A DNA stretch of 64,000 nucleotides from Candidatus Zhuqueibacterota bacterium (GTDB taxonomy: Bacteria > Zhuqueibacterota > Zhuqueibacteria > Thermofontimicrobiales > Thermofontimicrobiaceae). The DNA is taken from contig JBMOPW010000007.1 in assembly GCA_049322915.1 (NCBI GenBank), positions 276,246 through 340,245 of the forward strand, in the 5' to 3' direction. Under the pieces are notes generated by a model. That model worked only from the letters and a program-made list of their open reading frames with translations. It was not told where the DNA came from and ran no database searches. The position numbers were made by a program, and so were the translations under genes. Below are positions 7,401 to 31,728 of the stretch, piece by piece (position 1 is the first letter of the stretch; every line of letters starts with the position of its first letter).

Positions 7401-7434
7401 TATGAGCAAAAAAGTTTGACACTACGAACGAAGT

Positions 7435-7888: not shown

Positions 7889-8024
7889 TTAGATATATTT
7901 TTTTCTTCGTGCCTTTGAGGCTTTGTGGCTCGCCAGTTACGAATATTCATTTAAAAATATTCATAATGAAATGATTCTAACCTTGAACCCTGAACCAGCC
8001 AACCTGAGTAGTTGCTATCTGGAT

Positions 8025-9414: not shown

Positions 9415-9429
9415 ACCGGTGGGATTTGA

Positions 9430-13289: not shown

Positions 13290-13292
13290 ATT

Positions 13293-13772: not shown

Positions 13773-13774
13773 TT

Positions 13775-15965: not shown

Positions 15966-18900
15966 ATGAACTGGCAACGGACAAAAAGATTATCTTATTT
16001 ATTTTTCCTCGGATTTATCCTTTCTATTCGACCCTCTGTCGCTTTGCTATTCGGCCAGCAAGCTGGAACCAGCAGAATATCCGGTTATATTTTCAATAAA
16101 TTTGGTCAGCCGCTTTCCGGCGTAGAAGTGCGGGCAATCATCTCCAGCGGCTCCTACTACGACCGCATTGTTTACTCATCCGCCGACGGTAGTTTTGACA
16201 TTCAGTCCCTGCCAGTCGGGCAATATTATCTCCGAATTTTCAACAAGCTGGGGTATTTAGATGTCTATTATGAAAATGCCCTCAATAAAGAAGACGCCAC
16301 GCTCATCAAGTTGAATTATGATCAGCATGTTCAGGATGTCAATTTCTACCTTGAAAGCGGCGGATTTATCAGCGGCACGATTTTCGATGAAGCGGGGGCG
16401 CCCATTACGTCGAGCAGTTCAATCGTTTTTTTCGAGGCGGAAAACAACAATCCCCGGGGTGTCATTAACAGTATGAAAGATGGCAGTTATGTCAGCCCTG
16501 CGCTTCCAAGCGGACCTCATATTTTAAAAGCCTCTTCATTCCCGTCAGGTTATATTTTGACATATTATCAAAACGTCAGCACTCAGGATAGCGCGACGGT
16601 CGTCCATGTGACCCAGGGAGATACCGTGAAAAACATCGATTTCTACCTGCGAAAAGGCGGTGCAATTTCCGGTTTCGTGAGAGGCGATACCCCGGAAAAT
16701 GAGCCGGTATTCAATGCCTGGGTTGTGGTGACTGACTGGGATAATGGTGAATGGAGCTCGGAATGCAAGACGGACTCGGACGGATATTACCGCGCCGCTG
16801 GTCTCAGGCCGGGAAATTACCGGGTCCTGGTTTACAGCGTTGATCCATTGCTATATCACACTGAATTTTATCGTGATACGCCGCAGCGGGAAAATGCAAT
16901 ACCGGTCACTGTGATCGGGGAGGAAACGACCAGCGACATCAATTTCAATCTTCAGCCGGTGAGAAGGCTGGTGACCGGGAACGAGTTCATTGAGTTTTGC
17001 GTCAGCGACCGTTACCCTGGAACCAATCTCTCCTTATGGATTACCGGCGGGCTGCCGGAAAGTAACACCGATAACGACAAGCCGCTTCTATTCGGCCATC
17101 CCTACCCGTACACGTCGTTCACGACCGTTCGGATCGATGGCGAGGATATCATTTTTGGATCCGAGAAGGGCGACATGGTCGGCAACGTTTACATCAAACC
17201 GGATGGAAAAAGTATTGAACGTACCTGGAAGTATAAGAAAATCTCCATTGTGCAGAAAATAACGTTGACGGTGAGCGAATGGTCCGAGACGAAATATGAA
17301 GACACCGCCCAGATCCAATACGTCATCACCAATGACGACGGGATAAGTCATCAGGTTGGGTTGCGCATTTTGCTTGATACCATGCTGGGGGATAATGACG
17401 CTGCTCCGATTCGTACTTCGGATTTTACTTATTCGAATTACGAGCGCTCGTTCAATTCGCACAATATGCCTGACTGGTGGGCTGCGATGGAGGGCGACAA
17501 AAGGAAGACGATTTTTTCCGCCCAGGGCACTTTGGTCGGTTACGGAGCGACGGCGCCGAATCAATTCTCAACCGTCAATTGGAGCAATGCGTTCAAAACG
17601 CTGTGGGATTATCGGACCAGCGGCGATGTCGGCGTGATTTACGACAGCGGTGTGGCCATGTGGTGGAACCCGGAACCCATTGCGCCGGGCAACACAAAGA
17701 TCGTCTGTACCTATCTGGGATTGGGAGAGATGTTCCCTGATAATTCACCCCCGTATACCGCGCACCACAGCCCGGCCAGGGACAGCAGCTATGTGGCGCT
17801 TCATTCGAATATTCAGGTGGATATTCTGGACGATTACATGGGCGTGGATTCGACGACAATCGTCATGACCGTGAATGGGCAGGTAGTAAATCCTACCATC
17901 AGCGGCAGCCTGTCTCAGTTCACGGTCAGTTTTGATCCGGAAGAGAATTTTAACTACAATGACACGGTGCGGATTAAAATCGATGCTTCCGATTTGGCTA
18001 TTGAGCCCAATATTATGCCGACCGACGAGTACGTCTTTTACGCAGTCAGGGATACGCTCCCTCCCTACGTGAAAGATGTATATCCGCTTGCCGGACTATC
18101 CCGGGTGAAATCCGATACCAGCCTGTCCCTTACCATTTGTGATGACCATTCCGGCGTGGATTCTGCCTCGATAGAAATCCGAATGGACGGCGAGGTCATT
18201 CGTCCGAACATTACAGGCTCTCCGCAGCAGTATTTCATTCGCCATCCGTTTGAACCTCCTTTTGGCGAAATGGACACGGTCATGGTCTTCATCCGGGCGA
18301 AAGATAGAGTGGCGCCGGCAAATCCGGTCACCATGCAATATCTGTTTGTGACGGAAAGGGATTCCCTGTCGCCGCGGATCACTTTTACCTATCCGTCAAA
18401 TAACCAGGTGCATATCCCACGCGATACCACGATCACAATTCGTTTGGAGGATGATTACACCGGCATTGACCTGCAATCGATTCGCATGATGGTGAACGGA
18501 ACGTTGGTTGAACATGAATTGCGCGTTTCAGATTCGCGACATGTAGAGATTGCTTATAGACCGGACCACGGGTTTCGATTTAACGATCGGATTTCAGTGC
18601 AGATCGAGGCGCGCGATCTGGCGCGGCACCCAAACGCAATGCCGCCGTTCGGATTTAACTTCAGCGTGGTGACTGATGTGGAGCCGCCATTCATTACCAG
18701 CCAGACGCCGGTTCCGAATGATACGACTGTTGTGCCCAGCCCTCAAATCGTGATCGGGATAGCGGATGAAAAAGCCGGGGTGGATTCTCTTTCCATCCGG
18801 CTATGGCTGAATGAAAATTCTGTCCCATTTCAACTGACCGGAAATAAATTTCAGTATCTGGTAAATTACCAGATCCCATCTCCATTGAATTATCTCGAGT

Positions 18901-20549
18901 GGGTGCAGGTGACTTTTGTCGCTGCCGATTTAAGCAGTCCGGCCAACGCAATGGATACGCTCCGCTATCAATTCCGAATCACGCGCGAGAAAGATGTCAC
19001 GTCGCCCTATGTGGTGCAATGGCAGCCAGTTCCTGATGCGGATGATGTTTTACCAGATTGTATTATTTCTTTCCATATCAGGGATGACATGGCCGGAGTG
19101 GATAGTAGTTCGGTTATATTAAAAATTAATAATAAATTGACAACGACGCGGCCAAAAATTACCGGTGGTTTACATGATTATCTGGTTCAATATCAGCCAC
19201 CTGAGCCATTTCAGTATGGACAAAGCATTGTGCTGCATGTCGATGCTCAGGATCTGGCGGTTGATGCACCAAACAAAATGAAAACAGACAGTTGTCATTT
19301 TTCAGTGCTGCCCGATATCGCGCCGCCAAAAGTGGAGTGGATTTCACCGGGCCTGCCTGGCACGCATATTGCATTAAATTCACATTTTACTTTCGAAATT
19401 TTCGATGAGCTGACTGGCGTCGATATTCGGTCCCTTCGATTTACGTTTCAGGATGAAGAAGTAGAGCCTGACCTGTCGGGCGAGCGTGGCCGAATTCGCG
19501 TGGAGTTCACTCCGGAAAGCCCATTGAATTACAATCAGCAGATTAAATGGGTCGTTACGGGGCGCGATCTTGCTTCGCCATCCAACCGGATGACGGATAC
19601 ATTGTTTTATTTCTATTCATTGGAAGATCACGACGCGCCGTATACGATGAACCATCAACCGGCAAAAAATCAACCCGACGTCAGATTTGATAGTGGAATA
19701 CGCGTTGATGTCTGCGATGATATTGCCGGTGTGAATTTAAGCTCGATTCGGATGACTGTAGAGGGGGATACAGTTCCTCCTCTCATTACAGGAACGTCCC
19801 AGTGTTACCAGCTCTTCTTTCAGCCTGAGCCACCTGGCTTCCGGCCGGGTCAGCGCGTGCGGGTAACTCTTGGCTGTTCCGACCTATCCAATCCACCGCT
19901 TAAAATGGACACAGACAGCTATGAGTTTTTCATTAAAGATGTCTATCCTGATTTTTATTTCGATTCCTTCAATTCAGATAATGCAAAAATATTGGTTCAT
20001 CAACCGATAACATTCTCAGGGGTCTTCCGGGTTGCAGTGGCTCCGACATTTGATTCGGTCATTGTTAAAGTCTGGGACAATAATCGGCCCGTTTTATCCG
20101 AGGCTTTTCCTCCGCTCCCGATTGATGCGGAGATGGAGATCGCCGGCAATGTCGCTTTTCAAACCAGTGGCTCGCATCGGTTACGAGTGACAGTGGATCC
20201 GGATAACAAGATAAGAGAGGCGGATGAAAGTAATAACAGCGCTGAAATCGTGATCAATGTAATTGAAGGGGAACTCATCGTCCGGTCCAATCCGTTTACT
20301 CCGAACGGCGACGGCATAAATGACGAGGTGGCATTCAATTTCGAAAAAATCGCGGTGACGAAACCATCGCTGACATTGTTCGATGTTTCCGGCCGATCGA
20401 TAACGGCGCTGACAGAATACCACAGCTATAAATTTACCTGGGACGGCAGAGATCGGTACGGCAACCAGACGCAACCTGGTGTTTACTTATACCTGCTCAA
20501 AGACGGCGAAAAAGTCGTGGCTAACGGCTACGTCGTGATTGCACGCTAA
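15966..20549 (+). CDS. Large secreted Ig-repeat surface protein with CARDB and T9SS type-B-like C-terminal domain
   Basis: Signal peptide, 3 carboxypeptidase-regulatory-like repeats (ISG..), a central unique domain, 7 tandem ~100-aa Ig-like repeats (D..PP...P...GVD..SI...A.DLA..PN.M), CARDB (VDPDNKIREADESNN), and C-terminal NPFTPNGDGIND...WDG......PGVYLY....GYVVIAR. Confidence 0.88.
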   Translation: MNWQRTKRLSYLFFLGFILSIRPSVALLFGQQAGTSRISGYIFNKFGQPLSGVEVRAIISSGSYYDRIVYSSADGSFDIQSLPVGQYYLRIFNKLGYLDVYYENALNKEDATLIKLNYDQHVQDVNFYLESGGFISGTIFDEAGAPITSSSSIVFFEAENNNPRGVINSMKDGSYVSPALPSGPHILKASSFPSGYILTYYQNVSTQDSATVVHVTQGDTVKNIDFYLRKGGAISGFVRGDTPENEPVFNAWVVVTDWDNGEWSSECKTDSDGYYRAAGLRPGNYRVLVYSVDPLLYHTEFYRDTPQRENAIPVTVIGEETTSDINFNLQPVRRLVTGNEFIEFCVSDRYPGTNLSLWITGGLPESNTDNDKPLLFGHPYPYTSFTTVRIDGEDIIFGSEKGDMVGNVYIKPDGKSIERTWKYKKISIVQKITLTVSEWSETKYEDTAQIQYVITNDDGISHQVGLRILLDTMLGDNDAAPIRTSDFTYSNYERSFNSHNMPDWWAAMEGDKRKTIFSAQGTLVGYGATAPNQFSTVNWSNAFKTLWDYRTSGDVGVIYDSGVAMWWNPEPIAPGNTKIVCTYLGLGEMFPDNSPPYTAHHSPARDSSYVALHSNIQVDILDDYMGVDSTTIVMTVNGQVVNPTISGSLSQFTVSFDPEENFNYNDTVRIKIDASDLAIEPNIMPTDEYVFYAVRDTLPPYVKDVYPLAGLSRVKSDTSLSLTICDDHSGVDSASIEIRMDGEVIRPNITGSPQQYFIRHPFEPPFGEMDTVMVFIRAKDRVAPANPVTMQYLFVTERDSLSPRITFTYPSNNQVHIPRDTTITIRLEDDYTGIDLQSIRMMVNGTLVEHELRVSDSRHVEIAYRPDHGFRFNDRISVQIEARDLARHPNAMPPFGFNFSVVTDVEPPFITSQTPVPNDTTVVPSPQIVIGIADEKAGVDSLSIRLWLNENSVPFQLTGNKFQYLVNYQIPSPLNYLEWVQVTFVAADLSSPANAMDTLRYQFRITREKDVTSPYVVQWQPVPDADDVLPDCIISFHIRDDMAGVDSSSVILKINNKLTTTRPKITGGLHDYLVQYQPPEPFQYGQSIVLHVDAQDLAVDAPNKMKTDSCHFSVLPDIAPPKVEWISPGLPGTHIALNSHFTFEIFDELTGVDIRSLRFTFQDEEVEPDLSGERGRIRVEFTPESPLNYNQQIKWVVTGRDLASPSNRMTDTLFYFYSLEDHDAPYTMNHQPAKNQPDVRFDSGIRVDVCDDIAGVNLSSIRMTVEGDTVPPLITGTSQCYQLFFQPEPPGFRPGQRVRVTLGCSDLSNPPLKMDTDSYEFFIKDVYPDFYFDSFNSDNAKILVHQPITFSGVFRVAVAPTFDSVIVKVWDNNRPVLSEAFPPLPIDAEMEIAGNVAFQTSGSHRLRVTVDPDNKIREADESNNSAEIVINVIEGELIVRSNPFTPNGDGINDEVAFNFEKIAVTKPSLTLFDVSGRSITALTEYHSYKFTWDGRDRYGNQTQPGVYLYLLKDGEKVVANGYVVIAR

Positions 20550-20560
20550 ATGGAAAAATT

Positions 20561-22333
20561 ATGATCGCCTGGAAAAAAATACTGATCGGGATTGTCATTA
20601 TTTCCGGAATTCTGGACGGCGGGAATCCTCGTTCCTGCGTCTCGCAGAATATTCTCACAGCCGACCCTGCCGATATCTTTGATTCAAAAGCGATTTTTTT
20701 GAACTCGGCTGTGATTCCTTTTCAGAGACGCCATGTTGCGCTGGGAATGCAAGTGTATCAGATGGGTTTTATGAAAAGCAATGAATTGGGTTTGAATACC
20801 GGCTATTTCAGTCTTTCCCTGGCTGAGTCGCTTCCGTTGTATCTGAATTTCGGATTGTCCGGACAAAATTTTTCAACGCCGTTGTACGATCAGACAAATT
20901 TTTCATTACATTTCGCCGCCAGGCCAATGGAGCGGATATCCGTAGGGATTAAGTACAATGTGTTCACCAAATCGTATCACCAGAGGTATTTCGACCTGGT
21001 GGATATCAACGATCCTGTCTTTGCGAATGGCACGACCAAGTTTGCCCAGAGTATCGGCGCCGGGGTGCTGTTTTTCCCGCTGTCTGAGCTTGCGCTGGGT
21101 CTGGCAGTTGATCATATCAATCGGCCGGATGTTTCTCTTTCCGATGACGTGTTCCGGCAACCTCTGGCGTACGACATGGGGATTCGGTATTCGTACAGAC
21201 ACTTTAGTAGTTCCATTCATCTGAATTATATGCAGGAACACTGGCAGTTCAATTGGATGCTGGAAACGCGGCCGACGTCCATAAGCTCATTCAGGCTGGG
21301 CTTGATTCAGAAGGCTGCGGATTTTCAGGTCGAGTTGAGCGTGCTGGATGGTTTTTCAATCAACTATGTTTTTAATTACCCGCTTTACGAGGTAAGCCAG
21401 ATTAGCAGTGGCAGTCATCAGATTAACTTCATTTATGAGTTGGGACGGAGAACTCCGCTGGATGAGTTTCAATACACCAGGTATGATGAAGGCAAATCAC
21501 CCATTTTCGACCTGCCGTCTCAATTCTTTGTTGAACTGAATGATGCGACCCTTGAAGTTCAGTCACAAAAAATTCTTCGCCGGATTGAAAATGATGTGCC
21601 CGGTAATGCGCTTGCAAATCTGACTGAAATGGAATTGGCTCTCAATGATTCCATCAGCCATCCGCAGGATTTTTTTCAGCACGGACAGGTGGAAGAGCCG
21701 TTGGATCGTTTGAGCGGGAAGCCAAAATATTCGACTAAGTATGATAATTATTTAGCAGAATTGGCCGATATTTTTTCCGGAGATGGGGATGAGTCCATCA
21801 AAATCCTGACCGAAACTGCATCTCGAACACGAGCGGAAGATTTGCTTCGGGACAAAATCTACAATGCGACCAAATTGGCGGCCACAGAAAAGGTTGTCCA
21901 GTTAAATGAAACCGAAGCCACCCGCAAAGTGAAACCGGGCGATGTACCAAAAAGCAGCTATGCCTCGGCGATTGAACTCAATCCGGAAAAGGCTGTCTTT
22001 TCTGTCACATCGCTCAAAATGAGGGCGTATCGGCGAGAATGGCGGCTTGTCATACTGGACGGAGATGAAAAGGAAGTCAAAAACTTTTCCGGAAAAAACG
22101 ATGTTCCGGAAACAATTGAGTGGGATTGGAGGAACCAAAACGGCAGGTTGCTTCAGCCGGGCGTCTATGTGTACCGCCTCGAATGGTTCGATAACGAGGG
22201 CAAGTTGCGACAATCGCGAGCGGCGTCGTTCAGCGTTGAAAAGCGCTCGCGCACATTTTACATTGATGTGTGCGCATCGCCCAGGAAAATCGAGCCCGAA
22301 GGAACCCACGTTGAAATTAAACTGACGCAATAG
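20561..22333 (+). CDS. PorP/SprF-like outer-membrane beta-barrel with C-terminal FlgD-Ig-like domain
   Basis: Signal peptide, alternating beta strands, LGLAVDHINRPDVS and SGSHQINFIY motifs as in the PorP/SprF family, C-terminal WDWRNQNG..LQPGVYVY; directly follows a type-B CTD gene. Confidence 0.75.
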   Translation: MIAWKKILIGIVIISGILDGGNPRSCVSQNILTADPADIFDSKAIFLNSAVIPFQRRHVALGMQVYQMGFMKSNELGLNTGYFSLSLAESLPLYLNFGLSGQNFSTPLYDQTNFSLHFAARPMERISVGIKYNVFTKSYHQRYFDLVDINDPVFANGTTKFAQSIGAGVLFFPLSELALGLAVDHINRPDVSLSDDVFRQPLAYDMGIRYSYRHFSSSIHLNYMQEHWQFNWMLETRPTSISSFRLGLIQKAADFQVELSVLDGFSINYVFNYPLYEVSQISSGSHQINFIYELGRRTPLDEFQYTRYDEGKSPIFDLPSQFFVELNDATLEVQSQKILRRIENDVPGNALANLTEMELALNDSISHPQDFFQHGQVEEPLDRLSGKPKYSTKYDNYLAELADIFSGDGDESIKILTETASRTRAEDLLRDKIYNATKLAATEKVVQLNETEATRKVKPGDVPKSSYASAIELNPEKAVFSVTSLKMRAYRREWRLVILDGDEKEVKNFSGKNDVPETIEWDWRNQNGRLLQPGVYVYRLEWFDNEGKLRQSRAASFSVEKRSRTFYIDVCASPRKIEPEGTHVEIKLTQ

Positions 22334-22545: not shown

Positions 22546-24123
22546 ATGTTTTTAAAGAAGAAAACAATTTTGTTGATGCTGATTTTTTTGTTATTGCCGG
22601 GCGCGGAATTCATCTGGGCCGTTCCGCAGACGGCGCAGCCAGATTCAATAATGAACAGTAATGCCAATACTGCGTTAGATCCAGCAACTCTGACGCAGAT
22701 CAATGGCCTGCAATCCCTCTGGGATATAACGCTCCTGGCTGGATTCTTTCGTTGGTTTATCAACGGGACATTTATTATTGGTATGCTTCTCATTATGTAT
22801 AAAGTCTCGGAGTTGGTCCTGGATTCCAGGCATTCCCGTGATCTGGAGAAATTGAATTTGCGCCGGGCATCGCTGGTAGATGTGATGCGTGTTATTAAGA
22901 ATAACAAGCAAAGTATGTTGAGTCAATTGTTCAAATATATGATGGACCTGTATCAGACCAGACGATCGGCTGAGGGATTCAATAGTGAGATCAGCGATTT
23001 TGTCCAGATCCAGCAGGAGCGATTTCAGGCAGTGCAAACAAAAGTGGCTTTTTTCTCGGAGGCAGCCGGGGCGCTGGGATTGTTAGGTACGGTATGGGGG
23101 ATGTTCATCACCTTCTTTGGCGGGGATCTGGAAAAGCAGAAAATCCTGAGCGGAATGGGTGTGGCCCTGGTTACCACCATTATGGGATTGATTGTGAGCC
23201 TTATTCTCAATTTATTCATGATGCAAACCTTTAGCTATTTCAGAAGACGGATCGATAAAGTTTCGGATCTGGGAAATCAATTCCGGCTGAGATTGCATCA
23301 GTTGGAACAGACCCTGGACAATTCCATTCCTGATAATGGCGAAGATTCCGATAATGGTGATTCAATCAACAAGTCCAATTATGAAATTTCAAAAGCTGTA
23401 ATTGATGCAGTGGATCGACAGCTTAAAAGACCGGATCCAATTTTCGATTTTGTGAGCGATGCGGGCGCGAAGACGGCTGCCGAAAATGGCGGATTTAAAA
23501 TCGTTCCGATTTCAGGTGATAATCAGTCGGTGCGCGTGAATTCACGTCTGGAAAAACCGTTTGTTGTACAAATTTCATCCAACAACGGGAATGGATTATC
23601 GGACCAACCAATCCTTTTTGAAGTCGTGGAAGGTAATGGTAAATTTAGCTCTGGCCGAAAGCAGGAGGAGGTCCTCAGCGATGCCAGTGGATTGGCCCAG
23701 TCGCATCTCATCCTGGGCAGCTTGTCTGGTGAAAATAAAGTGAAAGTGAAAGTGAAAGGCAGTTCCAATTCGGACTTTTATTTCAAGGCATGGGGAGAAC
23801 CAACGGAGCCGGATCAATTGGTCTATGTGTCCGGCAATCATCAAAACGGACCGTGCGGCGCTGAGTTGAAAGAACCTTTTGCGGTGAAAGTCATTGACAA
23901 ATTCAATAATCCGATTCCGGATTGGATCGTATCGTTCAAGGTCGAGGACGGCAAGGGATTTTTCCCTGAGAAAAAGAGCGAGTTTCAGACCCGCACCGAT
24001 CAGAATGGGCTTGCAGAAGTCTACTTTACATTGGGTAAAAAGCCCGGGTTCAATTCGGTGAAGGCATCATTGAAAGGACTGAAGAAATCCAAAATTTATT
24101 TTGAAGCTCTTGGACAGGGATGA
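22546..24123 (+). CDS. MotA/TolQ/ExbB proton-channel subunit fused to two C-terminal bacterial Ig-like (Big_1-type) domains
   Basis: LGLLGTVWGM and GMGVALVTTIMGL channel motifs, then two repeats starting SGDNQ / SGNHQ with PF.V.V.D..NP.....V.F.V..G.G.....TD..GLA. Confidence 0.88.
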   Translation: MFLKKKTILLMLIFLLLPGAEFIWAVPQTAQPDSIMNSNANTALDPATLTQINGLQSLWDITLLAGFFRWFINGTFIIGMLLIMYKVSELVLDSRHSRDLEKLNLRRASLVDVMRVIKNNKQSMLSQLFKYMMDLYQTRRSAEGFNSEISDFVQIQQERFQAVQTKVAFFSEAAGALGLLGTVWGMFITFFGGDLEKQKILSGMGVALVTTIMGLIVSLILNLFMMQTFSYFRRRIDKVSDLGNQFRLRLHQLEQTLDNSIPDNGEDSDNGDSINKSNYEISKAVIDAVDRQLKRPDPIFDFVSDAGAKTAAENGGFKIVPISGDNQSVRVNSRLEKPFVVQISSNNGNGLSDQPILFEVVEGNGKFSSGRKQEEVLSDASGLAQSHLILGSLSGENKVKVKVKGSSNSDFYFKAWGEPTEPDQLVYVSGNHQNGPCGAELKEPFAVKVIDKFNNPIPDWIVSFKVEDGKGFFPEKKSEFQTRTDQNGLAEVYFTLGKKPGFNSVKASLKGLKKSKIYFEALGQG

Positions 24124-24146: not shown

Positions 24147-24560
24147 ATGATGAACCAGGGTGGAGTAATACTTCGACTCATCGATGTCACGCTTCTTTTG
24201 TTGTTCAGTTTTATTTCGGTCAGTGAAATAAGTGAGAGAAGTTTCATTAAACTACCGAAAAGCACTCAGACGTTGCCAACCCTTCCCGATAAAGAGGATC
24301 TATTGGTTGTTGGGATAACGCCGCAGGGGACATTTCTTGTCGAGGACGAAACCCGGGTGCTCAATAATTTTCAGGCTTTGGAAGAGTATATTATCAATAA
24401 GAACAATAAAAATTTACGCGAAAATATTGCAACCCGTGTTCGCATTCGCGCTAACTGGAACACTCACATGAAATACGTGGTCGCGCTGGTCAATTTGTGC
24501 GATAGTCTGAAAATACCCAAAGGTCTGGATGTCGTTCTCAAGGAAGGCAATACATTATAA
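24147..24560 (+). CDS. ExbD/TolR-family subunit 1
   Basis: LIDVTLLLLFSF TM with the conserved Asp, IKLPKS, and VRIRA...V.LV periplasmic fold pattern. Confidence 0.85.
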   Translation: MMNQGGVILRLIDVTLLLLFSFISVSEISERSFIKLPKSTQTLPTLPDKEDLLVVGITPQGTFLVEDETRVLNNFQALEEYIINKNNKNLRENIATRVRIRANWNTHMKYVVALVNLCDSLKIPKGLDVVLKEGNTL

Positions 24561-24576
24561 TGTGTGAGTTATTATC

Positions 24577-24987
24577 ATGGTAAAAGGTGGTTTAATCATT
24601 CGCCTTATTGATGTGGTGTTAATTGTCTTATTCAGTTTTTTGAACATCACTGATATTGACCGTAAAGGTCAAATTAAATTACCGTCGATTGGACCGAGCA
24701 AAAGTCAGAAAGTAGCACAGCAACTTCTGTTTCTCACCATTGAAAACGGGAATACGTTTGTATTAACGGACGGCCAGCAAGCCATTGCCCAATTGGACAG
24801 TCTCCCAAAGCTGGAGCGAATGATAGCAAATCTGAATGACCAGTATAAACTGGAACAACGGCGGATGGTTCTGGTGATTGAGCCAGCTATGGAATCAATC
24901 ATACAGTCCACGATCGACGTCATGGATATCTGTGAGAAATACAATATCCCAAAAAGTGTATCCTATTCAAAAATTGAACTCAATTAG
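24577..24987 (+). CDS. ExbD/TolR-family subunit 2
   Basis: LIDVVLIVLFSF TM with the conserved Asp, IKLPS, IDVMDIC. Confidence 0.85.
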   Translation: MVKGGLIIRLIDVVLIVLFSFLNITDIDRKGQIKLPSIGPSKSQKVAQQLLFLTIENGNTFVLTDGQQAIAQLDSLPKLERMIANLNDQYKLEQRRMVLVIEPAMESIIQSTIDVMDICEKYNIPKSVSYSKIELN

Positions 24988-24999: not shown

Positions 25000-26208
25000 A
25001 TGGATTGGATTCTGGAAAAAAGTAGTGAGTTTAATTTCAGAGCAAAGCTCTTGAATTATCGTCGAGTGAGCGAATTGCTCGTTATTATATTCTTGATTGG
25101 AATGTACGTCTATCTGGAACATGCCGCTGTCCCTAATTTTGGGTATCAATTTGCCAGAGCTTATAAAGAGATCGATTGGGTCAAGTTTTCAGAGGATGTG
25201 ATGCCACCGGTGCAGCGACAGATCATCCCAATCCCGACAACTCCCGGCGAAACGACTCTCATGACACCTGAGCTTTCAACTACTCTGACCAAATCGGAGT
25301 GGTCGGAGATATCGGATTTATTAAAAAATGATATCAGTAGTGTTTTGAATTCAAAGGAATCAGCTTCGTTGGTGCAACCGCCTGATGAGAAGTTTGAGTA
25401 TTCTCAACTGAAAAATCTGTATGCGGATCCGTCGATGAAAGAAGGACAAACGAGGGTTCAGGACAATCAGGCAGAATTGCATAAAATCAGTTCTCCGATT
25501 TCACTGCTTTCATCAGTAAAGACGAACGCGAGTCAGGCGAATGAATTACCAATCGACGATTATGATATTGCCATTCCGGTTGATCGGGATCGCTACAGTG
25601 AATCGGATAGACCCCAAATTCTTACAACGACCACCACAGCAGCGACGATTGGAATTCCCTCGACTGGCGCTCCGGGTGTGACAATTGGGAAGTCAGCATT
25701 CGCGTCTAATAGACGTTCGACGATTGGAACGGACAAAGTGATACCTGAGACAGGTCCGGGGGGCGGCCAGGTCAGCAGCAAATACACCACATACGTCAAG
25801 CAAAATATGGCCATCATTATCGACGATCTGATGAAGTGGATGAACAGCAACAAGGGATCATTTAACCGGGTGACTGAAAGTTTTATGATGTATGAAAGCG
25901 GTGACCTCACATCGAAAACTGATTATGTTTATAATGGCCGTAAATTTGAGTTATACTTGCTGTACAAGCCCAATGTGAAAGAGATTCGAATTTGTATGGT
26001 GGAGGGAAATCGTTCTACCATGCTCATAGATGATGGGTTCAAAAAGCAAAGCAATTATCTCAGAACTGGCGATGTCTCACGTGATGGAAATGATTCCATT
26101 GTTTTGTTCAGCACCAGTCAGCATCCGGCCTCCGAACAGATGACAAATGAATTTTATCAGATCTTTCTAATGTGGTGGGAAAAAGCAAAGAAATCCATTG
26201 GCTTGTAA
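25000..26208 (+). CDS. Bitopic membrane protein with TonB/TolA-like architecture (TM, S/T/P-rich linker, C-terminal globular domain)
   Basis: Single N-terminal TM LLVIIFLIGMYVYL, long low-complexity region, ~135-aa C-terminal domain; 12 bp after the second exbD. Confidence 0.6.
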   Translation: MDWILEKSSEFNFRAKLLNYRRVSELLVIIFLIGMYVYLEHAAVPNFGYQFARAYKEIDWVKFSEDVMPPVQRQIIPIPTTPGETTLMTPELSTTLTKSEWSEISDLLKNDISSVLNSKESASLVQPPDEKFEYSQLKNLYADPSMKEGQTRVQDNQAELHKISSPISLLSSVKTNASQANELPIDDYDIAIPVDRDRYSESDRPQILTTTTTAATIGIPSTGAPGVTIGKSAFASNRRSTIGTDKVIPETGPGGGQVSSKYTTYVKQNMAIIIDDLMKWMNSNKGSFNRVTESFMMYESGDLTSKTDYVYNGRKFELYLLYKPNVKEIRICMVEGNRSTMLIDDGFKKQSNYLRTGDVSRDGNDSIVLFSTSQHPASEQMTNEFYQIFLMWWEKAKKSIGL

Positions 26209-26285
26209 TTGCGTCGGCAATAATTTGGCTTCAGTATGATGTTCCATTTCGTATCGAACGATTCATACAGGATTGCACGAAAATT

Positions 26286-26963
26286 ATGAAATTAAAATTT
26301 CTCATATTTCTATTATGTTTCTGGGCGATGTATGCGTCAGGGCAGAGCGTCGATAATGGCCAGGGCAAAGTGTCCCAAATTTCTGTGCCGGTTATGAGCA
26401 TCACAGATACTAAATTGATGACCATGTTGATGGATGAATTTTTCATCCCGGAAACATTGGTGACCCGGATGGAGATAATCGATGTGGGGCTCAACGGATT
26501 TGGCGCGCGAGATCTGGTTAAAGTCTACCCTTCAGCCGAAATTTATTTCATCGAATTCATCTCCAATAAAGCCCAGCAAGTAATGAACGACTGGAAGTTT
26601 CGAGCTAATTTTCAAATAGTCACCCAAAATGCGGACGCCAGCGTTTTGTCCAACTACGGCGAAAACAAACCGGCATACAATATTTTCATCTCGTTGCTGA
26701 GGAGCATGGAGCGAAATTACAGTGATTATCCCATCAAAATTAAATTGGAGCGGGATTCTTCCACTGTTAAATTCGAGATGTGGGAATATAACGAAACAAA
26801 GCTGAAGTTCGATCCCCGGTCTACACCCCTGGAGAATGATATTTTGACCAGGCAAGCCAAATCCATTGTCGATAGTACCTACTATGACTGCATTTTTATA
26901 TACAAAACAGTTGTCGATACTGTATACCTACCACAACGCAGATTAGAAACCGTTGCCAAGTGA
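26286..26963 (+). CDS. Hypothetical secreted/periplasmic protein
   Basis: MKLKFLIFLLCFWAMYASGQ is a Sec signal peptide, so the start is placed at ATG 26286; last gene of the run. Confidence 0.75.
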   Translation: MKLKFLIFLLCFWAMYASGQSVDNGQGKVSQISVPVMSITDTKLMTMLMDEFFIPETLVTRMEIIDVGLNGFGARDLVKVYPSAEIYFIEFISNKAQQVMNDWKFRANFQIVTQNADASVLSNYGENKPAYNIFISLLRSMERNYSDYPIKIKLERDSSTVKFEMWEYNETKLKFDPRSTPLENDILTRQAKSIVDSTYYDCIFIYKTVVDTVYLPQRRLETVAK

Positions 26964-27529: not shown

Positions 27530-28171
27530 ATGGTAGTCATTGAATCCCAATACGCGCTATTCCAGGAAATCGATCATCTCAATACGAACTTCATTCCCGG
27601 AATACATAAAATGAGGCTGACGATTGATACCATATCGTCGGAGGATAATTACAGACGGGCTTATCCAGCCATTGTGAAACAGTTTGTCCACCTTTTCCCT
27701 AGACTGAAGCAACATTCCTGCTGCTATTCGAAAATCGGCCAGAGTGATCTGATTCATGGCGATTTGATTCCCATGATCAACGAAGGAAATTGTATCTTGG
27801 ATATCATCCATATTGTGGAACATGTCATTATTGATTTGCAGTGCTCGTTATCCGGAATGAAAATATGCAGTGGTATTACATGCAATTATAAAGAGCCGAG
27901 AACTCGCTACGATATTTTTGTAGAATGTATCGATCAAAAAGTGGGATTGAGCGCTGCGCTTACGGCAGTGGAAATGGTCCAAAAAATTCTGGCGTGCGAT
28001 TATTTGAAATACCCATTTGACGAATTCATTTCGGTCAATGACCTTCTGCGAGATCAGAGCCCGGAGCAGATTCAACTGAATTCCATCGTGGAAAGCTGTG
28101 AGCCATATATCTTTGATTTTGGTAAAGATTTAATCAGACGAGTGTTAAATTTCTCCATGTCTAAAAATTGA
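27530..28171 (+). CDS. Stand-alone cyanophycin synthetase N-terminal-like domain protein
   Basis: LFPRLKQHSC...HIVEHVIIDLQ..SGM...G.T....Y.I..E matches the CphA1 N-domain pattern LP.L.EH.C...GH..EHVALELQ..AG. Confidence 0.7.
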   Translation: MVVIESQYALFQEIDHLNTNFIPGIHKMRLTIDTISSEDNYRRAYPAIVKQFVHLFPRLKQHSCCYSKIGQSDLIHGDLIPMINEGNCILDIIHIVEHVIIDLQCSLSGMKICSGITCNYKEPRTRYDIFVECIDQKVGLSAALTAVEMVQKILACDYLKYPFDEFISVNDLLRDQSPEQIQLNSIVESCEPYIFDFGKDLIRRVLNFSMSKN

Positions 28172-28291: not shown

Positions 28292-28353
28292 GGAAATATC
28301 TAAATTTGTAAAGAGTAAAAACCAGATCAGTTGCGATATTGAGAGAAGACTGT

Positions 28354-30420
28354 ATGAGTAATCCATTAGTTTTGGTGGCCGATGGAGACCCCAAAAACCT
28401 CCAGATTCTGAAAGAGAATCTTGAAGCGTCTGGATTCATTGTCATCACTGTTTCCACCGGAAATCGAGCCTGGGAAGAAATACAGCGCACTCCGCCTAAG
28501 CTTATCCTGAGTGAGTTGAATCTTCCTGGCATGACCGGCTATCAATTACTCGAACGGTTACAGGCCGATCCCAATACTGCATCCATTCCTTTGATTTTTT
28601 TAACCAACCAGCGTGAAATTCAGCAGCGAGTCCGCAGTTTCGAATTGGGCGCCAAGGACTATCTCGTAAAACCCCTCCATGTGAAAGAAGTGATCGCTCA
28701 CATCCGAATGGTGTTGCGCCGACTGGAACGCCGCAAGGTAGAACAATTAGAGACATACATGAAATTTTCCGGTCGTCTCGATCAGTTGAATCTCGCCGAT
28801 CTGATTGAGAGTTTCGGCGTGGAGCGAAAGACTGGTGTTTTGACGTTGAGTAATGGACGCCGGACAGGCCAGGTGTATTTCCGCGAAGGAACGGTTGTAA
28901 ACGCCAGCCTCGGTGATGTGAAACTGGAACAAGCTGTCTACCAAATGTTTTCCTGGAAACATGGATTTTTTAACATGGTTTTTCGCGATGTCGATGTGCC
29001 GGACGGCATCTCAATCAGCAACCTGGGCCTGCTGCTTCAAGGCATGAAGCGGATGGAAACCCGCGAAAATTTGATTGCTCAACTCTCTTCGCCGAAAACA
29101 GCTTTTATCATCACTCCGACATTTAAGAACATTGTCGAACGCAAGAAAGTCGGCGATGCAGTCTCCTCATTCATCCAATTGCTGGATGGTAAACGGGATG
29201 TGGAACAAATAATCGACGATAGCGGTGCAGATGACCTGGTGACGCTCAAGAGAATTATACGACTGTATCAACAGGGATTCATCAAAGCGACGATCCCGCC
29301 GGCGAAAAAAGAGGTGACGCAGCAGCAGCCCGTTATTGAGCCGAAGAAAATTGAGCCTCGAAAACCTGTCGAGACCGCTGAGGAGATACTGCGTCGAATG
29401 GAAAAACCTGTAGCGCCTGATGAGGCCACCCCGGCCATTCCGGACGACAACGTGTTTGAAGTCGCTCCTCGCAAAGAGCGTAAAAATTTAGAGGACGAGA
29501 TCAAGCCGATTGTGGAGCGAATTCAGGCGGAGCGCCGGGAAGTCTACATTCCAGAGACTGAAGAAGAATCAGAAGAACAGTTGATTCAGCAGGATGAGCC
29601 ACCGACAACCGGATACGCTCGGTTTGCAGAGGAAGACGTGCAGGACTCATTCCCTGTTTCCCATACAGAAGATGTTCATGCACCTGTAGCCGAAGTCGAA
29701 GAAGAAATTCTGGCCAAGGCTGAAAAGCAGGAAACGTTTGTCGATGAAGAATTGCTGCAACAGCCGATCGAGGAGAATATTGAGGCAGAGCCTGTTGTTA
29801 ATCTTCCAAAGAAAGAAAAAATCCCGGTTGCCATGTCAGATACCAGCCGAACGGTGGCTTCCCGAGCACCTACTGACAGGAATAATATCATGCTCATCAG
29901 CGTCGATGAGGATTGCAAAGATGAGTTGATGGATGTTCTCACCGGGAATAAATTCCAGTCGAAGTCCATCAAAGAGCTGGAAGATTTACGGCTGGAAATT
30001 GGCAAGATTAATTTTGAAAAATTCCCGGCCTATAATCTGATCGCTATTTCTTTGGATAAACAATTTAATATATTCCTGGAGTCGGTTAAAAACAGCATCA
30101 TTGGCAATGTTTTCACATTCGATTGCTCCCGTCAGGAAACCTGGGAATACACAAATTATCTGATCCATTCGATCTGGCATAAATTTAAAATTCCCTATGT
30201 GATTGCAGTCATCAATCTGCATGAGCACAATTCTATTTCCATGGACGTAATTCGGTATCAATTGAATCTCGATATGGATGTGGCGCTCATCGCATGGGAC
30301 CCTGTGGATAAATCCTCGATTCGGAAAGTGATGTCCACAGTGATAAAAGGCGACCTGCGAAAGGAACAAAATAAAACAGCAGTCATGTTGGATTCTTTGG
30401 TAGAAAAAATGATGATGTAA
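28354..30420 (+). CDS. REC-DUF4388 protein with acidic linker and C-terminal degenerate small-GTPase-like domain
   Basis: Receiver (VLVADGD, LILSE, GAKDYLVKP), DUF4388 (FSGRLDQLNLADLIE...KTGVL...GQVYFREG..V.A), E/P-rich linker, C-terminal alpha/beta domain resembling 31780-32277. Confidence 0.8.
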   Translation: MSNPLVLVADGDPKNLQILKENLEASGFIVITVSTGNRAWEEIQRTPPKLILSELNLPGMTGYQLLERLQADPNTASIPLIFLTNQREIQQRVRSFELGAKDYLVKPLHVKEVIAHIRMVLRRLERRKVEQLETYMKFSGRLDQLNLADLIESFGVERKTGVLTLSNGRRTGQVYFREGTVVNASLGDVKLEQAVYQMFSWKHGFFNMVFRDVDVPDGISISNLGLLLQGMKRMETRENLIAQLSSPKTAFIITPTFKNIVERKKVGDAVSSFIQLLDGKRDVEQIIDDSGADDLVTLKRIIRLYQQGFIKATIPPAKKEVTQQQPVIEPKKIEPRKPVETAEEILRRMEKPVAPDEATPAIPDDNVFEVAPRKERKNLEDEIKPIVERIQAERREVYIPETEEESEEQLIQQDEPPTTGYARFAEEDVQDSFPVSHTEDVHAPVAEVEEEILAKAEKQETFVDEELLQQPIEENIEAEPVVNLPKKEKIPVAMSDTSRTVASRAPTDRNNIMLISVDEDCKDELMDVLTGNKFQSKSIKELEDLRLEIGKINFEKFPAYNLIAISLDKQFNIFLESVKNSIIGNVFTFDCSRQETWEYTNYLIHSIWHKFKIPYVIAVINLHEHNSISMDVIRYQLNLDMDVALIAWDPVDKSSIRKVMSTVIKGDLRKEQNKTAVMLDSLVEKMMM

Positions 30421-30516
30421 TTGCAGCACCTGCTGGCATTGTCTCAGCAGTTAGAAACAGAGAGAGCGCCTTGCGATGCAATTTTCGAATCGCAAGGTTT
30501 TTTACTCAATCAGGTG

Positions 30517-31728
30517 ATGATGAAAAAGACGAGAAAAATTCTGATTGTTGATAGCGACACAAACTACATAATCCCTTTGCGCAACTCGCTATCAAAAGTC
30601 GGTTATGAGGTAGTCTGTTGGGATGACGGACAAAAGGCATTGGAACTGGCGAAGAGTTTTCAGGCGGATATGATTATTTCTGAAGTGGAATTGCCCAAAG
30701 TTTCTGGCCATGTATTATTCAAGGAGTTGCGATCAGTGCCGGCGTGCAAAACTACGCCTTTCATTTTTCTGAGTAGTCAGAAGCGCGTGGATGACCGCAT
30801 TAAAAGTATGGAATTGGGCGTGGACGATTATATCACCAAACCGTTTTACGTGGAAGAAGTGGTCGCTCGCGTCGAAGCCCTGTTCAAGGAAGTGTCGAAA
30901 TTGAATGACGGACACGGTCCATCCGAGAAAGGCTTTTCCGGAAATTTATCCGAAATGAATCTGGTCGATCTGATACAGACGCTGGAACTGGGCAAAAAAT
31001 CGGCAATTTTAAAATTGAAACATAATGCTGCTGTCGGTCTTGTGTATGTCAAAGACGGGGAAGTGATTGATGCATCCTTAGCTGACCTTTCACCGGACAT
31101 GGCGCTGCTGCGCATGTTCACCTGGACGATTGGCAATTTTTTAGTGGACATCGCACCTGTCGAACGCGAAAAACGGGTTCAAACCTCGAATAAGGAACTG
31201 GTCAATATGGGTTTGCGACGCATCAATGAATGGAATCAGATAAAAGAAGGGCTGCCCCCGATCAATTCAGCGGTGATGAAAACTCAGATTAACAGCTACG
31301 ATGAGCTCAGCAACGAAGAACGCGCCATGATTACCAATATCAATGAGAAGAAATTCATTTATGAGATCATCGAAAAGAGTGAATTAGACGATTTAAAGGC
31401 TCTGGAAGTGATGCGGAGCCTGTATCAAAAAGGATATTTGCAGGAGATAGAAGATAGCTCCGTCCCTTATATGGATGACTATGTGACCAAGCTAAAGCAG
31501 AACGTTTCAACCACTCGTTCGACCACAGAGCGCGTGCTTTCCATTGTATCCAACGTTTTCAAAAAGCAGGAGGAGGACAGAGAGGAACAGTTGGATCCGC
31601 AAAATGATAGAAGGCAAATTCCGGATCGCCGGAAAGGAGATCGCCGACGCTTTGATCGCCTGCGGGGAGCGAACCAGATTTATCTGACAAAAACTGAACT
31701 GTTGATGATTCGAGAGCGATTGTCCTGA
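30517..31728 (+). CDS. REC-DUF4388 protein with Arg/Asp-rich (DRR) tail
   Basis: Receiver (ILIVDSD, MIISE, GVDDYITKPF), DUF4388 (FSGNLSEMNLVDLIQTLE..KKS), tail DRRQIPDRRKGDRRRFDR. Start at ATG 30517 or 30520. Confidence 0.85.
   Translation: MMKKTRKILIVDSDTNYIIPLRNSLSKVGYEVVCWDDGQKALELAKSFQADMIISEVELPKVSGHVLFKELRSVPACKTTPFIFLSSQKRVDDRIKSMELGVDDYITKPFYVEEVVARVEALFKEVSKLNDGHGPSEKGFSGNLSEMNLVDLIQTLELGKKSAILKLKHNAAVGLVYVKDGEVIDASLADLSPDMALLRMFTWTIGNFLVDIAPVEREKRVQTSNKELVNMGLRRINEWNQIKEGLPPINSAVMKTQINSYDELSNEERAMITNINEKKFIYEIIEKSELDDLKALEVMRSLYQKGYLQEIEDSSVPYMDDYVTKLKQNVSTTRSTTERVLSIVSNVFKKQEEDREEQLDPQNDRRQIPDRRKGDRRRFDRLRGANQIYLTKTELLMIRERLS

Follow-up and report, generated by a model that had tools for sequence, protein, structure and literature searches.

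A diverged ExbB/TolQ-type motor subunit with a predicted cytoplasmic pair of Big_1-type Ig domains in a conserved PorP/SprF-linked gene module

The question raised by this locus is what 2 Ig-like domains are doing at the end of a motor subunit of the ExbB/TolQ type, and on which side of the membrane they lie. The gene, here called ExbB-Ig, is at 22546-24123 of the forward strand of the window, meaning the whole 64,000-nucleotide stretch of DNA that was analysed. ORF calling and translation give a single uninterrupted frame of 525 aa plus stop, with an AAGGAG-like ribosome-binding motif 8 nt 5' of the ATG. The feature singled out by an earlier note, at 23485-24123, is residues 314-525 of this ORF. 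The parts of the gene are as follows.

22546..24123, + strand: complete gene, an ExbB/TolQ-type subunit that ends in the Ig pair (ORF; Pfam MotA_ExbB and Big_1).
22546..22620, + strand: signal-peptide-like N-terminus, residues 1-25, ending ...FIWA (hydropathy, conservation).
22621..22731, + strand: acidic mature N-terminus, predicted periplasmic, residues 26-62 (pLDDT, charge).
22732..22800, + strand: TM1, about residues 63-85 (hydropathy; AF2 helix 68-102; aligned with the TM1 region of Serratia ExbB 6ye4).
22801..23043, + strand: TM1-TM2 helical loop, predicted cytoplasmic, residues 86-166 (AF2 helices 110-119, 124-139, and 145 onward).
23044..23124, + strand: TM2, about residues 167-193, with the invariant motif S171..GAxGLLGTVxG (hydropathy, alignment).
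23137..23229, + strand: TM3, about residues 198-228 (hydropathy, alignment, Pfam MotA_ExbB 122-232).
23230..23322, + strand: basic continuation of the TM3 helix, predicted cytoplasmic, residues 229-259 (AF2 helix 197-259).
23323..23493, + strand: acidic linker with one short helix, residues 260-316 (pLDDT, alignment).
23494..23802, + strand: Ig-like domain 1 (Ig1), residues 317-419 (internal repeat, beta-sandwich with pLDDT >90, weak Big_1/MG4 matches).
23806..24120, + strand: Ig-like domain 2 (Ig2), residues 421-525, Big_1, with the conserved ending ...ALGQ(G) (Pfam, Foldseek).

Pfam aligns MotA_ExbB to residues 122-232 with 54.9 bits against a cut-off of 22.9, and a search of the whole genome with the MotA_ExbB profile gave 58.5 bits at this gene. 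A profile of 43 relatives has its best PDB match in Serratia ExbB (6ye4/7ajq) at E = 4.5e-4 over positions 57-226, which spans TM1 to TM3, with further matches to MotA (8ucs/6ysf) and to E. coli ExbB (5sv0). The strict equivalogs score far below their thresholds, with 28.1 bits against 221 for TolQ (TIGR02796) and 23.3 bits against 135.35 for ExbB (TIGR02805). Hydropathy gives 3 TM helices, and conserved polar residues are present in both TM2 and TM3: across the 43 sequences the invariant columns are S171, G175, A176, G178-V183, and G185 in TM2, and G203, M204, G205, A207, T211, G214, and L215 in TM3. T182 and T211 are invariant and T210 is nearly so; we take T182/T211 to be equivalent to the E. 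coli ExbB Thr residues. Judged by its sequence, the core is a diverged one of the MotA/TolQ/ExbB type with 3 TM helices.

An N-terminal signal-like peptide had been proposed from the letters alone, and it is there by hydropathy as a hydrophobic window across residues 5-30; 39 of the 43 aligned relatives keep a hydrophobic run of at least 10 residues within their first 45. Residues 24-55 have low pLDDT in the AF2 model. A similar beginning is described for the "long" ExbB of Serratia marcescens (6YE4, 7AJQ), where a signal peptide and a periplasmic N-terminal stretch precede the 3-TM core and the chain ends about 10 residues past helix alpha-8 with no C-terminal domain (PMC9008036). ExbB-Ig has the signal peptide, the periplasmic stretch, the 3-TM core, and an adjacent ExbD in common with this protein, but the Serratia ExbB works with TonB/HasB and TonB-dependent receptors, and the match to it is weak at the above E-value of 4.5e-4.

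The main point of interest is the side on which the C-terminus lies. The earlier note expected it in the cytoplasm as in ExbB, unless an additional TM segment intervened. By hydropathy none does: past residue 235 the best 19-residue Kyte-Doolittle window scores 0.86, and the complete tails of 76 out of 76 homologs likewise have no further hydrophobic segment, the maximum window being 1.52. The content of K+R per 100 residues is 6.8 in the mature N-terminus, where the net charge is -2, 15.2 in the TM1-TM2 loop, and 19.5 in the stretch right after TM3, a gradient that agrees with the positive-inside rule for an ExbB topology. As the tail lacks another hydrophobic stretch and the charges are distributed as expected for ExbB, the Ig pair is predicted to be on the cytoplasmic side, with homology, hydropathy, and charge bias as the basis. 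In other proteins Big_1 domains are extracytoplasmic, and the predicted site departs from that usual location.

That the tail consists of 2 Big_1/invasin-type repeats of about 100 aa is confirmed by the internal repeat, Pfam, the model, and Foldseek. Residues 318-418 and 427-525 align gap-free over 101 columns at 32% identity (E = 2e-18). Ig2 matches Big_1 (PF02369) at residues 445-513 with 38.4-41.9 bits against a cut-off of 34.9, and Ig1 taken alone matches Big_1 weakly (13.7 bits, E = 0.068). The model of the C-terminal part has both repeats as confident beta-sandwiches (pLDDT 94.2, pTM 0.82), for which Foldseek gives intimin D0-D1 (6tpl, E = 2.9e-10) as the top match, followed by InvE (5n40), FdeC (4e9l), InvD (5ldy, TMq 0.58), and invasin (1cwv). 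The fold, the tandem layout, and the Pfam family of Ig2 are those of the invasin/intimin Big_1 arrays (6TPL, 5N40, 5LDY, 4E9L, 1CWV), but those arrays are extracellular stalks, whereas this pair follows the last inner-membrane TM and is predicted cytoplasmic. Within the best 150 matches, the closest relatives of the pair are repeats that share 26-40% identity with it where they match and that belong to proteins 741-5780 aa long. Seven of these proteins, hand-picked among the shorter ones (741-1323 aa), were scanned and have 5-10 Big_1 stretches each; some add FlgD_ig, FG-GAP, or dockerin domains.

Between the core and the pair, pLDDT is below 50 at 260-282 and 295-314, on either side of a helix at 283-294, and in the model residues 260-316 are probably a disordered linker. 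Its length in the alignment is 16-89 aa; Rhodothermales relatives have longer tails, and the tethers across relatives span 16-190 residues. Mean pairwise identity is 0.43 in the core, 0.39 in Ig2, 0.28 in Ig1, and 0.13 in the linker. The full-length model, with a pTM of 0.42, does not fix where the Ig pair lies with respect to the core.

ExbB-Ig has 122 database relatives at E <= 0.001. The search for the combined MotA_ExbB and Big_1 architecture that had been proposed finds both PF01618 and PF02369 in 94 of 120 relatives, among the matches listed. As a separate observation, PF26198 is listed for most of the database relatives. To count the domains locus by locus, we use 80 related loci from KSB1, Calditrichota, Balneolales/Rhodothermales, and Gemmatimonadota, which hold 76 complete ExbB ORFs. 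One or two Ig domains are in the ExbB frame in 68 of the 76, with two in 54 (2 of which scored as three matches), one in 14, and none in 8. On the core tree the number of Ig domains changes 6 times or more, with Ig-less forms nested inside Ig-bearing clades, and the source genome itself also holds a paralogous module without Ig. Since natural forms have 0 or 1 Ig, the motor can work without the pair. The Ig pair behaves as a selected, dosage-variable accessory and would lie outside the proton path.

Homologs present as 2 separate genes had been named in the earlier note as a sign of an assembly artefact. That layout exists in form in 5 Balneolales loci of one clade, in which the Ig part is out of frame; in most relatives there is a single ORF. 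The out-of-frame part begins at an A10 run that is conserved in all 5 loci, and none of the 5 Ig ORFs has its own start codon or its own signal peptide. These ORFs have dN/dS of 0.15-0.30 in 6 of 6 pairs, at dS of 0.9 or more, which indicates purifying selection. Because the Ig part is start-less, sits at the A10 run, and is under purifying selection, recoding into the fusion is the better explanation than an artefact, and the sequence pattern suggests programmed slippage at the A10 run in this clade. At one of the split loci, RNA-library contigs from one study cover both parts, one of them ending at base 7072 with the A10 run at 7073-7082; none crosses the run, and contigs cannot show minor variants. 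Recoding at A-runs occurs in dnaX (tau/gamma) and in IS elements, and as in those cases the A run of the split genes would yield two products, a short one read in frame and a longer one made by frame-shifting. The likeness is confined to the Balneolales relatives; the ExbB-Ig gene of the window has no A run of 7 or more.

The genes around ExbB-Ig belong to a module, of which the members in the window are the following.

15966..20549, + strand: surface protein, 1527 aa, containing Ig-like repeats and ending in a T9SS type-B (CHU_C) sorting domain (Pfam).
20561..22333, + strand: PorP/SprF-like outer-membrane protein, 590 aa, extended by an additional C-terminal half (Pfam PorP_SprF).
24147..24560, + strand: ExbD/TolR paralogue 1, 137 aa, TM Asp in RLIDV (Pfam ExbD, 39.6 bits).
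24577..24987, + strand: ExbD/TolR paralogue 2, 136 aa, TM Asp in RLIDV (Pfam ExbD, 41 bits).
25000..26208, + strand: protein with TonB/TolA-like anatomy and no family match (alignment of 28 sequences).
26277..26963, + strand: small signal-peptide protein, the last conserved module gene (tblastn in 54/80 loci).

Both ExbD paralogues exceed the Pfam cut-off of 25.4 bits, and they provide the adjacent ExbD/TolR/MotB-type partner with an acidic TM residue; the pair is found in 75 of the 80 loci. Directly after the second one, in 65 of 80 loci, comes the TonB-like protein, laid out as a short N-terminus, one TM, a low-complexity linker, and a conserved C-terminal domain of about 130 aa with L277, W280, D344, G357, F385, Y386, F389, W392, and W393 invariant in 28 sequences. 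Pfam, NCBIfam, and PDB sequence searches give no match to it and no TonB_C domain, and a profile search of the PDB gives low-complexity matches only. By contrast, TonB_C is found in an ordinary ExbB-ExbD-TonB cluster that the genome holds at another place. With no detectable TonB_C and no TonB-dependent transporter in the module, "Ton-like" describes the anatomy only, and membership in the Ton system was rejected for the same two absences. The small secreted protein has no Pfam or NCBIfam match, and ESM Atlas searches with it and with the TonB-like protein returned nothing usable, apart from leads for the small protein.

On the upstream side, the PorP_SprF match scores 30.7 bits against a cut-off of 22.3, with TIGR03519 at 29 bits, under its cut-off of 90.55. 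A homolog of this protein is in 59 of 80 loci, in 55 of them directly upstream of the ExbB gene. The surface protein has Pfam matches to CarboxypepD_reg, Big_5, CARDB, and CHU_C (40.4 bits), with TIGR04131 at 25.2 bits, under its cut-off of 35, and type-B C-terminal domain matches are also found upstream of PorP in related loci. A TPR lipoprotein is in 4 of the 4 module loci scanned. Among the 80 loci, those of Gemmatimonadota have no PorP or cargo match beside the motor, and synteny over all 80 finds no cytoplasmic partner encoded in the conserved module. The conserved module is a T9SS type-B cargo, a PorP/SprF-like protein, ExbB-Ig, two ExbD, the TonB-like protein, often a TPR lipoprotein, and the small secreted protein. 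The numbers of promoter-like sites (35 vs 25.1 +/- 6.0 in shuffled sequence) and terminator-like sites (15 vs 12.5 +/- 3.5) do not stand out from the shuffled expectation.

Among the closest known organizations is that of TolQ-TolR-TolA and ExbB-ExbD-TonB, in which the same gene order is seen: a channel subunit, an ExbD/TolR, and a protein built of one TM, a long linker, and a C-terminal domain; and the Thr of TM2/TM3 and the TM Asp of ExbD are kept in the ExbB-Ig module. The module differs in having 2 ExbD paralogues, a third protein without a TonB_C or TolA match, PorP/SprF-like and T9SS cargo neighbors in place of TolB/Pal or a TonB-dependent transporter, and the added Ig tail, predicted cytoplasmic. 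ZorA of Zorya is a MotA-like subunit with a long helical cytoplasmic tail, and both it and ExbB-Ig are MotA/ExbB-type channel subunits with a large C-terminal extension on the cytoplasmic side (predicted for ExbB-Ig), but the tail of ExbB-Ig is a flexible tether with Ig domains. An identity with ZorA was rejected: PADLOC models match the core only and weakly (24.1 bits, residues 158-285), there are no ZorB/C/D-like genes nearby, and the 4 neighbors scanned have no PADLOC match.

GldL/PorL, a subunit of a 5:2 motor, has a functionally important cytoplasmic C-terminal region, and it resembles ExbB-Ig in its link to T9SS genes and in coming from the same superphylum, but the fold class of ExbB-Ig is ExbB-like with 3 TM, and its partner is ExbD, not GldM. 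A GldL/GldM identity was rejected as well, the source genome having no match to the GldL, GldM, or GldN models (TIGR03513, TIGR03517, and PF12081 included); the GldK model finds partial generic matches only, at 128 bits against a cut-off of 350. Five further module-bearing genomes all lack GldM above cut-off, and GldL likewise, and SprA is found in 6 of 6 module-bearing genomes. A control for these models used 61 genomes of one phylum. SprA is in 49 of them, GldL, GldM, and PF12081 are all in the same 14 only, and the TonB-like marker of the module is strong in 2; 35 of the 49 SprA-bearing genomes have no GldL/GldM matches, and 33 of those 35 have no module either. The idea that the module replaces the T9SS motor was dropped, as GldL/GldM absence is common in control genomes without the module and, being unspecific, says nothing on replacement. 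In the open-access literature covered, which included PMC9389320, PMC6851124, PMC9008036, and PMC5445135, neither an ExbB/TolQ-Ig fusion nor a PorP-ExbB module was found. The ExbB-Ig arrangement is conserved yet, within that literature, undescribed.

In the mechanism that we propose, ExbB-Ig would form the channel of a diverged proton motor of the ExbB/TolQ type. The signal peptide would be cleaved, and the chain would then cross the membrane 3 times as ExbB does, which would leave the C-terminus in the cytoplasm. By homology, a pentamer would surround an ExbD dimer, probably a heterodimer of the 2 adjacent paralogues; the count of ten Ig domains per pentamer in the earlier note would hold only if the 5:2 stoichiometry of the solved ExbB/TolQ/MotA complexes applies. 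On the cytoplasmic side, a helix would lead into a flexible, length-variable, poorly conserved tether and on to 2 rigid Big_1-type Ig domains, which may have come from repeat arrays in giant surface adhesins. Tethered in this way, the pair would bind proteins and so position, cluster, or regulate the motor, and the gene module would pass proton-motive force to the PorP-anchored surface protein. We give slightly better than even chances to this reading, of a motor subunit with a tethered cytoplasmic Ig pair as a protein-binding module and a motor that drives the PorP-anchored surface protein. Weighing against it are the undefined placement of the pair in the full-length model, the absence of a cytoplasmic partner from the conserved module, the extracytoplasmic habit of Big_1, the forms with 0 or 1 Ig, the missing TonB_C and TonB-dependent transporter, and the Gemmatimonadota loci with neither PorP nor cargo. 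A docking scaffold for cytoskeletal or polarity proteins, as the earlier note supposed, is a conjecture within this reading.

The Ig pair might instead act within or between motors, either by self-association that clusters complexes or by folding back onto the pentamer to plug or brake it from the cytoplasmic side. Five tethered tails per complex on long, flexible tethers would give a high local concentration, the module conserves no gene for a cytoplasmic partner, and slippage-controlled dosage in one clade would fit a limit on crowding. However, nothing in the analysis shows self-association, and invasin/intimin-type Big_1 arrays are generally rod-like spacers. The complex prediction for 2 copies of the Ig pair scored 0.00 against a mark of 0.42 and speaks neither for nor against it. 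We regard such self-acting Ig domains as unlikely.

Turning of the central dimer has been proposed for GldLM, and a further possibility is that the tails are torque-reaction arms anchoring the pentamer to a static cytoplasmic structure while the central ExbD dimer turns. 5:2 motors need one part held still, and the module adjoins T9SS-type genes (PorP/SprF-like, type-B cargo), but flexible tethers of 16-190 residues would be poor torque arms that wind up, Ig-less and one-Ig forms occur within the same module, and no anchor candidate is known. This makes the idea quite improbable.

A departure of the ExbB-Ig subfamily from ExbB topology, with the pair in the periplasm, would agree with the extracytoplasmic location of Big_1 elsewhere and with the nearest relatives being repeats of giant surface proteins. 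It would have to contend with 76 of 76 complete tails free of a further hydrophobic segment, the strongly basic stretch after TM3, an invariant TM2-TM3 hairpin, a family profile that aligns with solved ExbB from TM1 through TM3, and, in the split Balneolales genes, an Ig ORF lacking a start codon or signal peptide of its own, and we consider it very unlikely. Even less credible is a functionless tail, the neutral or decaying remnant of a chance fusion: reduction or loss has happened several times, but the tail is kept in at least 4 phylum-level groups, Ig2 comes close to the motor core in its conservation, and where the Ig ORF is out of frame its low dN/dS and the A10 run in 5 of 5 loci point the other way. 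As to an assembly or gene-calling artefact joining 2 genes, the different frames of the 2 parts in 5 related loci are outweighed by the uninterrupted ORF in the window and in 68 of 76 homologous ORFs from many independent assemblies, the fusion in about 94 database clusters, and an A10 junction bridged unchanged by independent contigs, leaving it a negligible chance.

Returning to the motor with a tethered, protein-binding Ig pair, a wider proposal can be built on it. Known 5:2 proton motors (MotAB, ExbBD, TolQR, GldLM, ZorAB) differ mainly in the force recipient. ExbB-Ig might drive an undescribed machine that spans the envelope in KSB1, Calditrichota, Balneolales/Rhodothermales, and Gemmatimonadota, in which a 5:2 ExbB-ExbD1/ExbD2 complex and the TonB-like protein would pull, move, or release a type-B surface protein held by the PorP/SprF-like protein, the cytoplasmic Ig pairs would couple the motor to cues of position or regulation inside the cell, and A10 slippage would set the Ig-bearing share in one clade. 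We put this forward tentatively, as a possibility on the doubtful side. Because there is a cultured relative carrying ExbB-Ig, Rhodohalobacter sp. 8-1, these questions are testable at the bench, and in one clade nature itself, through the A10 junction, offers an experiment on the number of subunits that need the tail. If the proposal is true, tethered adhesin-type Ig domains would wire a 5:2 proton motor to the cytoplasm in a new way, and Big_1 domains would, as they rarely do, work intracellularly. The constant company of a PorP/SprF-like protein, a type-B cargo, and a TonB-like protein with a new end domain suggests a further force-transducing envelope system beyond Ton, Tol, and GldLM.

The protein studied here joins a MotA/TolQ/ExbB core to two Ig-like domains, Ig1 (residues 317-419) and Ig2 (421-525).

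22546-24123, plus strand: ExbB-Ig gene, a single ORF of 525 aa with a good ribosome-binding motif

Pfam assigns residues 122-232 to MotA_ExbB (54.9 bits) and residues 445-513 to Big_1 (38.4 bits), and hydropathy marks four hydrophobic segments, a signal-like peptide (5-30), TM1 (63-85), TM2 (173-193) and TM3 (198-232). The invariant TM2/TM3 motifs are present, T182 and T211 among them, and ExbB-Ig is a diverged yet intact ExbB-type channel subunit. An AlphaFold2 model (pLDDT 79.5, pTM 0.42), for which 43 relatives were used, shows long helices at 68-102, 145-191 and 197-259, then a short helix flanked by low-confidence stretches (260-282 and 295-314), and finally two all-beta domains at 317-418 and 422-524. 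Ig1 and Ig2 are 32% identical (E = 2 × 10−18). Modelled by itself, the pair reaches a pLDDT of 94.2 and a pTM of 0.82, with top Foldseek matches to intimin D0-D1, InvE, FdeC, InvD and invasin. Because Pfam, hydropathy, internal repeat, model and Foldseek agree, the two Ig-like repeats behind an ExbB core and the N-terminal signal-like peptide claimed in the earlier note are confirmed. As for named relatives, NCBI equivalog models rule out a TolQ or ExbB orthologue, a GldL model search rules out GldL, and ZorA, with weak core matches only, is ruled out as well.

A point of interest is on which side of the membrane the tail lies, since an additional TM would put the repeats in the periplasm. No hydrophobic segment is seen by hydropathy downstream of TM3, the maximum beyond residue 235 being 0.86, and none of the 76 complete homologous tails exceeds 1.52 in a 19-residue window; judged from sequence, a further TM is excluded. 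The family profile aligns with solved Serratia ExbB over TM1-TM3 (6ye4/7ajq, E = 4.5 × 10−4), and with MotA and E. coli ExbB over TM2-TM3. Counted over the 43 relatives, the mature N-terminus has 6.8 K+R per 100 residues, the TM1-TM2 loop 15.2, the TM2-TM3 turn of 12 residues 10.2 and the stretch directly past TM3 19.5. Because of this distribution, we predict the ExbB orientation, hence that the tail should be cytoplasmic. Serratia ExbB, as described in PMC9008036, shares the signal peptide and the extension of the N-terminus into the periplasm, so the N-terminal architecture of ExbB-Ig is a known variant.

The fusion is widespread. A word-indexed protein search finds 122 relatives at E ≤ 0.001, and in the precomputed domain column PF01618 and PF02369 occur together in 94 of the 120 relatives among the matches listed, PF01618 alone in 24 (mostly 300-430 aa), the other 2 being fragments or different proteins. 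Scanning species-representative genomes gave 159 confirmed stretches, from which 80 loci were kept, titled in their records as KSB1, Calditrichota, Balneolales (including the cultured Rhodohalobacter sp. 8-1), Rhodothermales and Gemmatimonadota/Longimicrobiales. Scored with an Ig profile from the alignment of ExbB-Ig relatives, the 76 ExbB ORFs uncut by contig ends hold two Ig domains in 52 cases, one in 14 and none in 8; in 2 (L022, L023) three matches are scored, Ig2 being split in two. The possibility that the ExbB and Ig parts are separate genes, joined by an assembly or gene-calling artefact, is excluded by the fusion in most complete ORFs and by the domain pairing in listed relatives.

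Mean pairwise identity is 0.43 in the motor core, 0.39 in Ig2, 0.28 in Ig1 and 0.13 in the linker, whose aligned length is 16-89 residues; Rhodothermales linkers are far longer, with post-core tails of up to 385 residues. The conservation of the Ig pair shows that the cell uses it. A quick IQ-TREE phylogeny of the core alone (79 rows, 204 columns) recovers Balneolota (95) and Gemmatimonadota (100) as starred clades. It also groups the one-Ig forms in a single starred clade (99), inside which two Ig-less forms fall, and it requires Ig number to have changed at least 6 times. The sole Ig of the one-Ig clade is a slightly better match to Ig1 and has a short tail behind it, and three other single-domain forms retain Ig2. 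Outside the family, the best 150 matches place the Ig pair closest to repeats within proteins 741-5780 aa long, at 26-40% identity over the stretches that match. Among the shorter of these 150 proteins, 7 (741-1323 aa) were scanned against Pfam, and each is an array of 5-10 Big_1 stretches, some also with FlgD_ig, FG-GAP or dockerin domains. From this, the Ig pair is a recruit from surface-protein repeats.

Five of the eight ORFs scored as Ig-less group in a starred clade (100) with L082, which truly lacks Ig domains. In each of the five, the ExbB frame ends 3-5 codons past a run of exactly ten A, and an Ig-domain ORF begins inside that run in a different frame (−1 in four, +1 in L077); this ORF has neither its own start codon nor its own signal peptide in these loci.

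Conserved A10 runs in five Balneolales species, each joining the core ORF to an out-of-frame Ig ORF
L066:7073-7082
L069:5705-5714
L076:4553-4562
L077:8740-8749
L085:3001-3010

Runs of at least nine A are rare, with 8 in total across the 80 loci, and 5 of them are these junctions. The shifted Ig ORF has a dN/dS of 0.15-0.30 in 6 of 6 pairs (dS 0.9-2.3) and is evidently under purifying selection; the core of the same genes has 0.04-0.09 in 5 pairs, one pair being saturated. DNA contigs of two samples, one of which may be the source of the locus, cross the run unchanged. The run looks like a programmed slippage site that would let one gene produce both a short ExbB and a long ExbB-Ig. A comparison resting on dnaX and IS elements favours RNA polymerase slippage over ribosomal −1 frameshifting, because sister species use both shifted frames. 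The A10 junction is absent from the window's own ExbB-Ig gene. The varying Ig number, an Ig-less paralogue (309 aa) on another contig of the window's genome, and the putative slippage site together mark the Ig pair as an accessory whose dose matters.

Related loci keep the order CHU_C/type-B cargo, PorP/SprF-like protein, ExbB-Ig, ExbD, ExbD, a ~350-aa protein and a small secreted protein.

Module genes matched in the 80 loci by tblastn with the window's proteins
ExbD pair: 75 of 80
~350-aa protein: 65 of 80
PorP-like protein: 59 of 80 (55 directly upstream, 4 a few kb downstream)
Small secreted protein: 54 of 80

Many misses are loci with short flanks; in Gemmatimonadota loci with full flanks, tblastn gives no PorP or cargo matches. 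A TPR lipoprotein of ~505 aa often sits between the last two genes (the intervening gene in 4 of 4 loci scanned) and is missing from the window and its closest relatives. Both ExbD paralogues retain the TM Asp. The ~350-aa family (window 25000-26208; 28 aligned sequences), whose gene always comes right after the second ExbD, has a short N-terminus, one TM, a low-complexity stretch rich in proline and charged residues, and a C-terminal domain of ~130 residues that is conserved and W/F/Y-rich, with invariant L277, W280, D344, G357, F385, Y386, F389, W392 and W393. Its anatomy is like that of TonB/TolA, but it has no match in Pfam, NCBIfam or PDB sequences. The small secreted protein (window 26172-26963) has its longest ORF from a GTG at 26172, overlapping the preceding gene; translation more probably starts at the ATG at 26277, the first codon of the signal peptide (MKLKFLIFLL...).

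Window 28339-30420 and 30421-31728, just downstream of the module: two response regulators with DUF4388
L098:562-11055, minus strand, contig C32 of the window's genome: paralogous module

The regulators are kept in the closest relatives (L011-L013) only and are absent from more distant loci. Between them and the module lies a 213-aa protein (27530-28171) with a cyanophycin-synthase-like N-terminal domain alone (PF18921, 51.9 bits). Upstream, a type IV pilus-like cluster (3732-15148) encodes a PilB-like ATPase, a PilC-like protein, three pilin-like genes, PilX_N, a PilM fusion and a secretin; with the module and regulators it may form a surface-motility supercluster. Besides the Ig-less ExbB-like protein and two ExbD, the paralogous module encodes a 598-aa PorP/SprF-like protein, two T9SS cargo proteins (one VWA-CHU_C, one SdrD_B-Por_Secre_tail), a 381-aa TonB-like family member, a 489-aa TPR protein and a small protein of 223 aa. 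On contig C4 of this genome (L097:2551-11574), an M28 peptidase and then an ordinary ExbB-ExbD-TonB cluster with a TonB_C match come after a SprA gene (2034 aa).

That the module is a stand-in for GldLM is not supported. SprA (TIGR04189) scores above cut-off in 49 of 61 sampled genomes of the phylum of genome G001, and the GldL, GldM and GldM_1st models match in the same 14 only, missing 35 of the 49 SprA-bearing genomes; either these models are narrow, or many lineages may use something else. No paper on the ExbB-Ig fusion or its module was found in the full-text literature available outside subscription journals. ExbB-Ig has two ExbD as partners, and their module also includes an outer-membrane PorP/SprF-like protein and T9SS type-B cargo. 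With ExbD it would form a 5:2 motor, whose force may pass through the TonB-like protein to a PorP-anchored surface protein. On their flexible tethers, the Ig pairs would extend into the cytoplasm, where they may serve as a binding module to position, cluster or regulate the motor.
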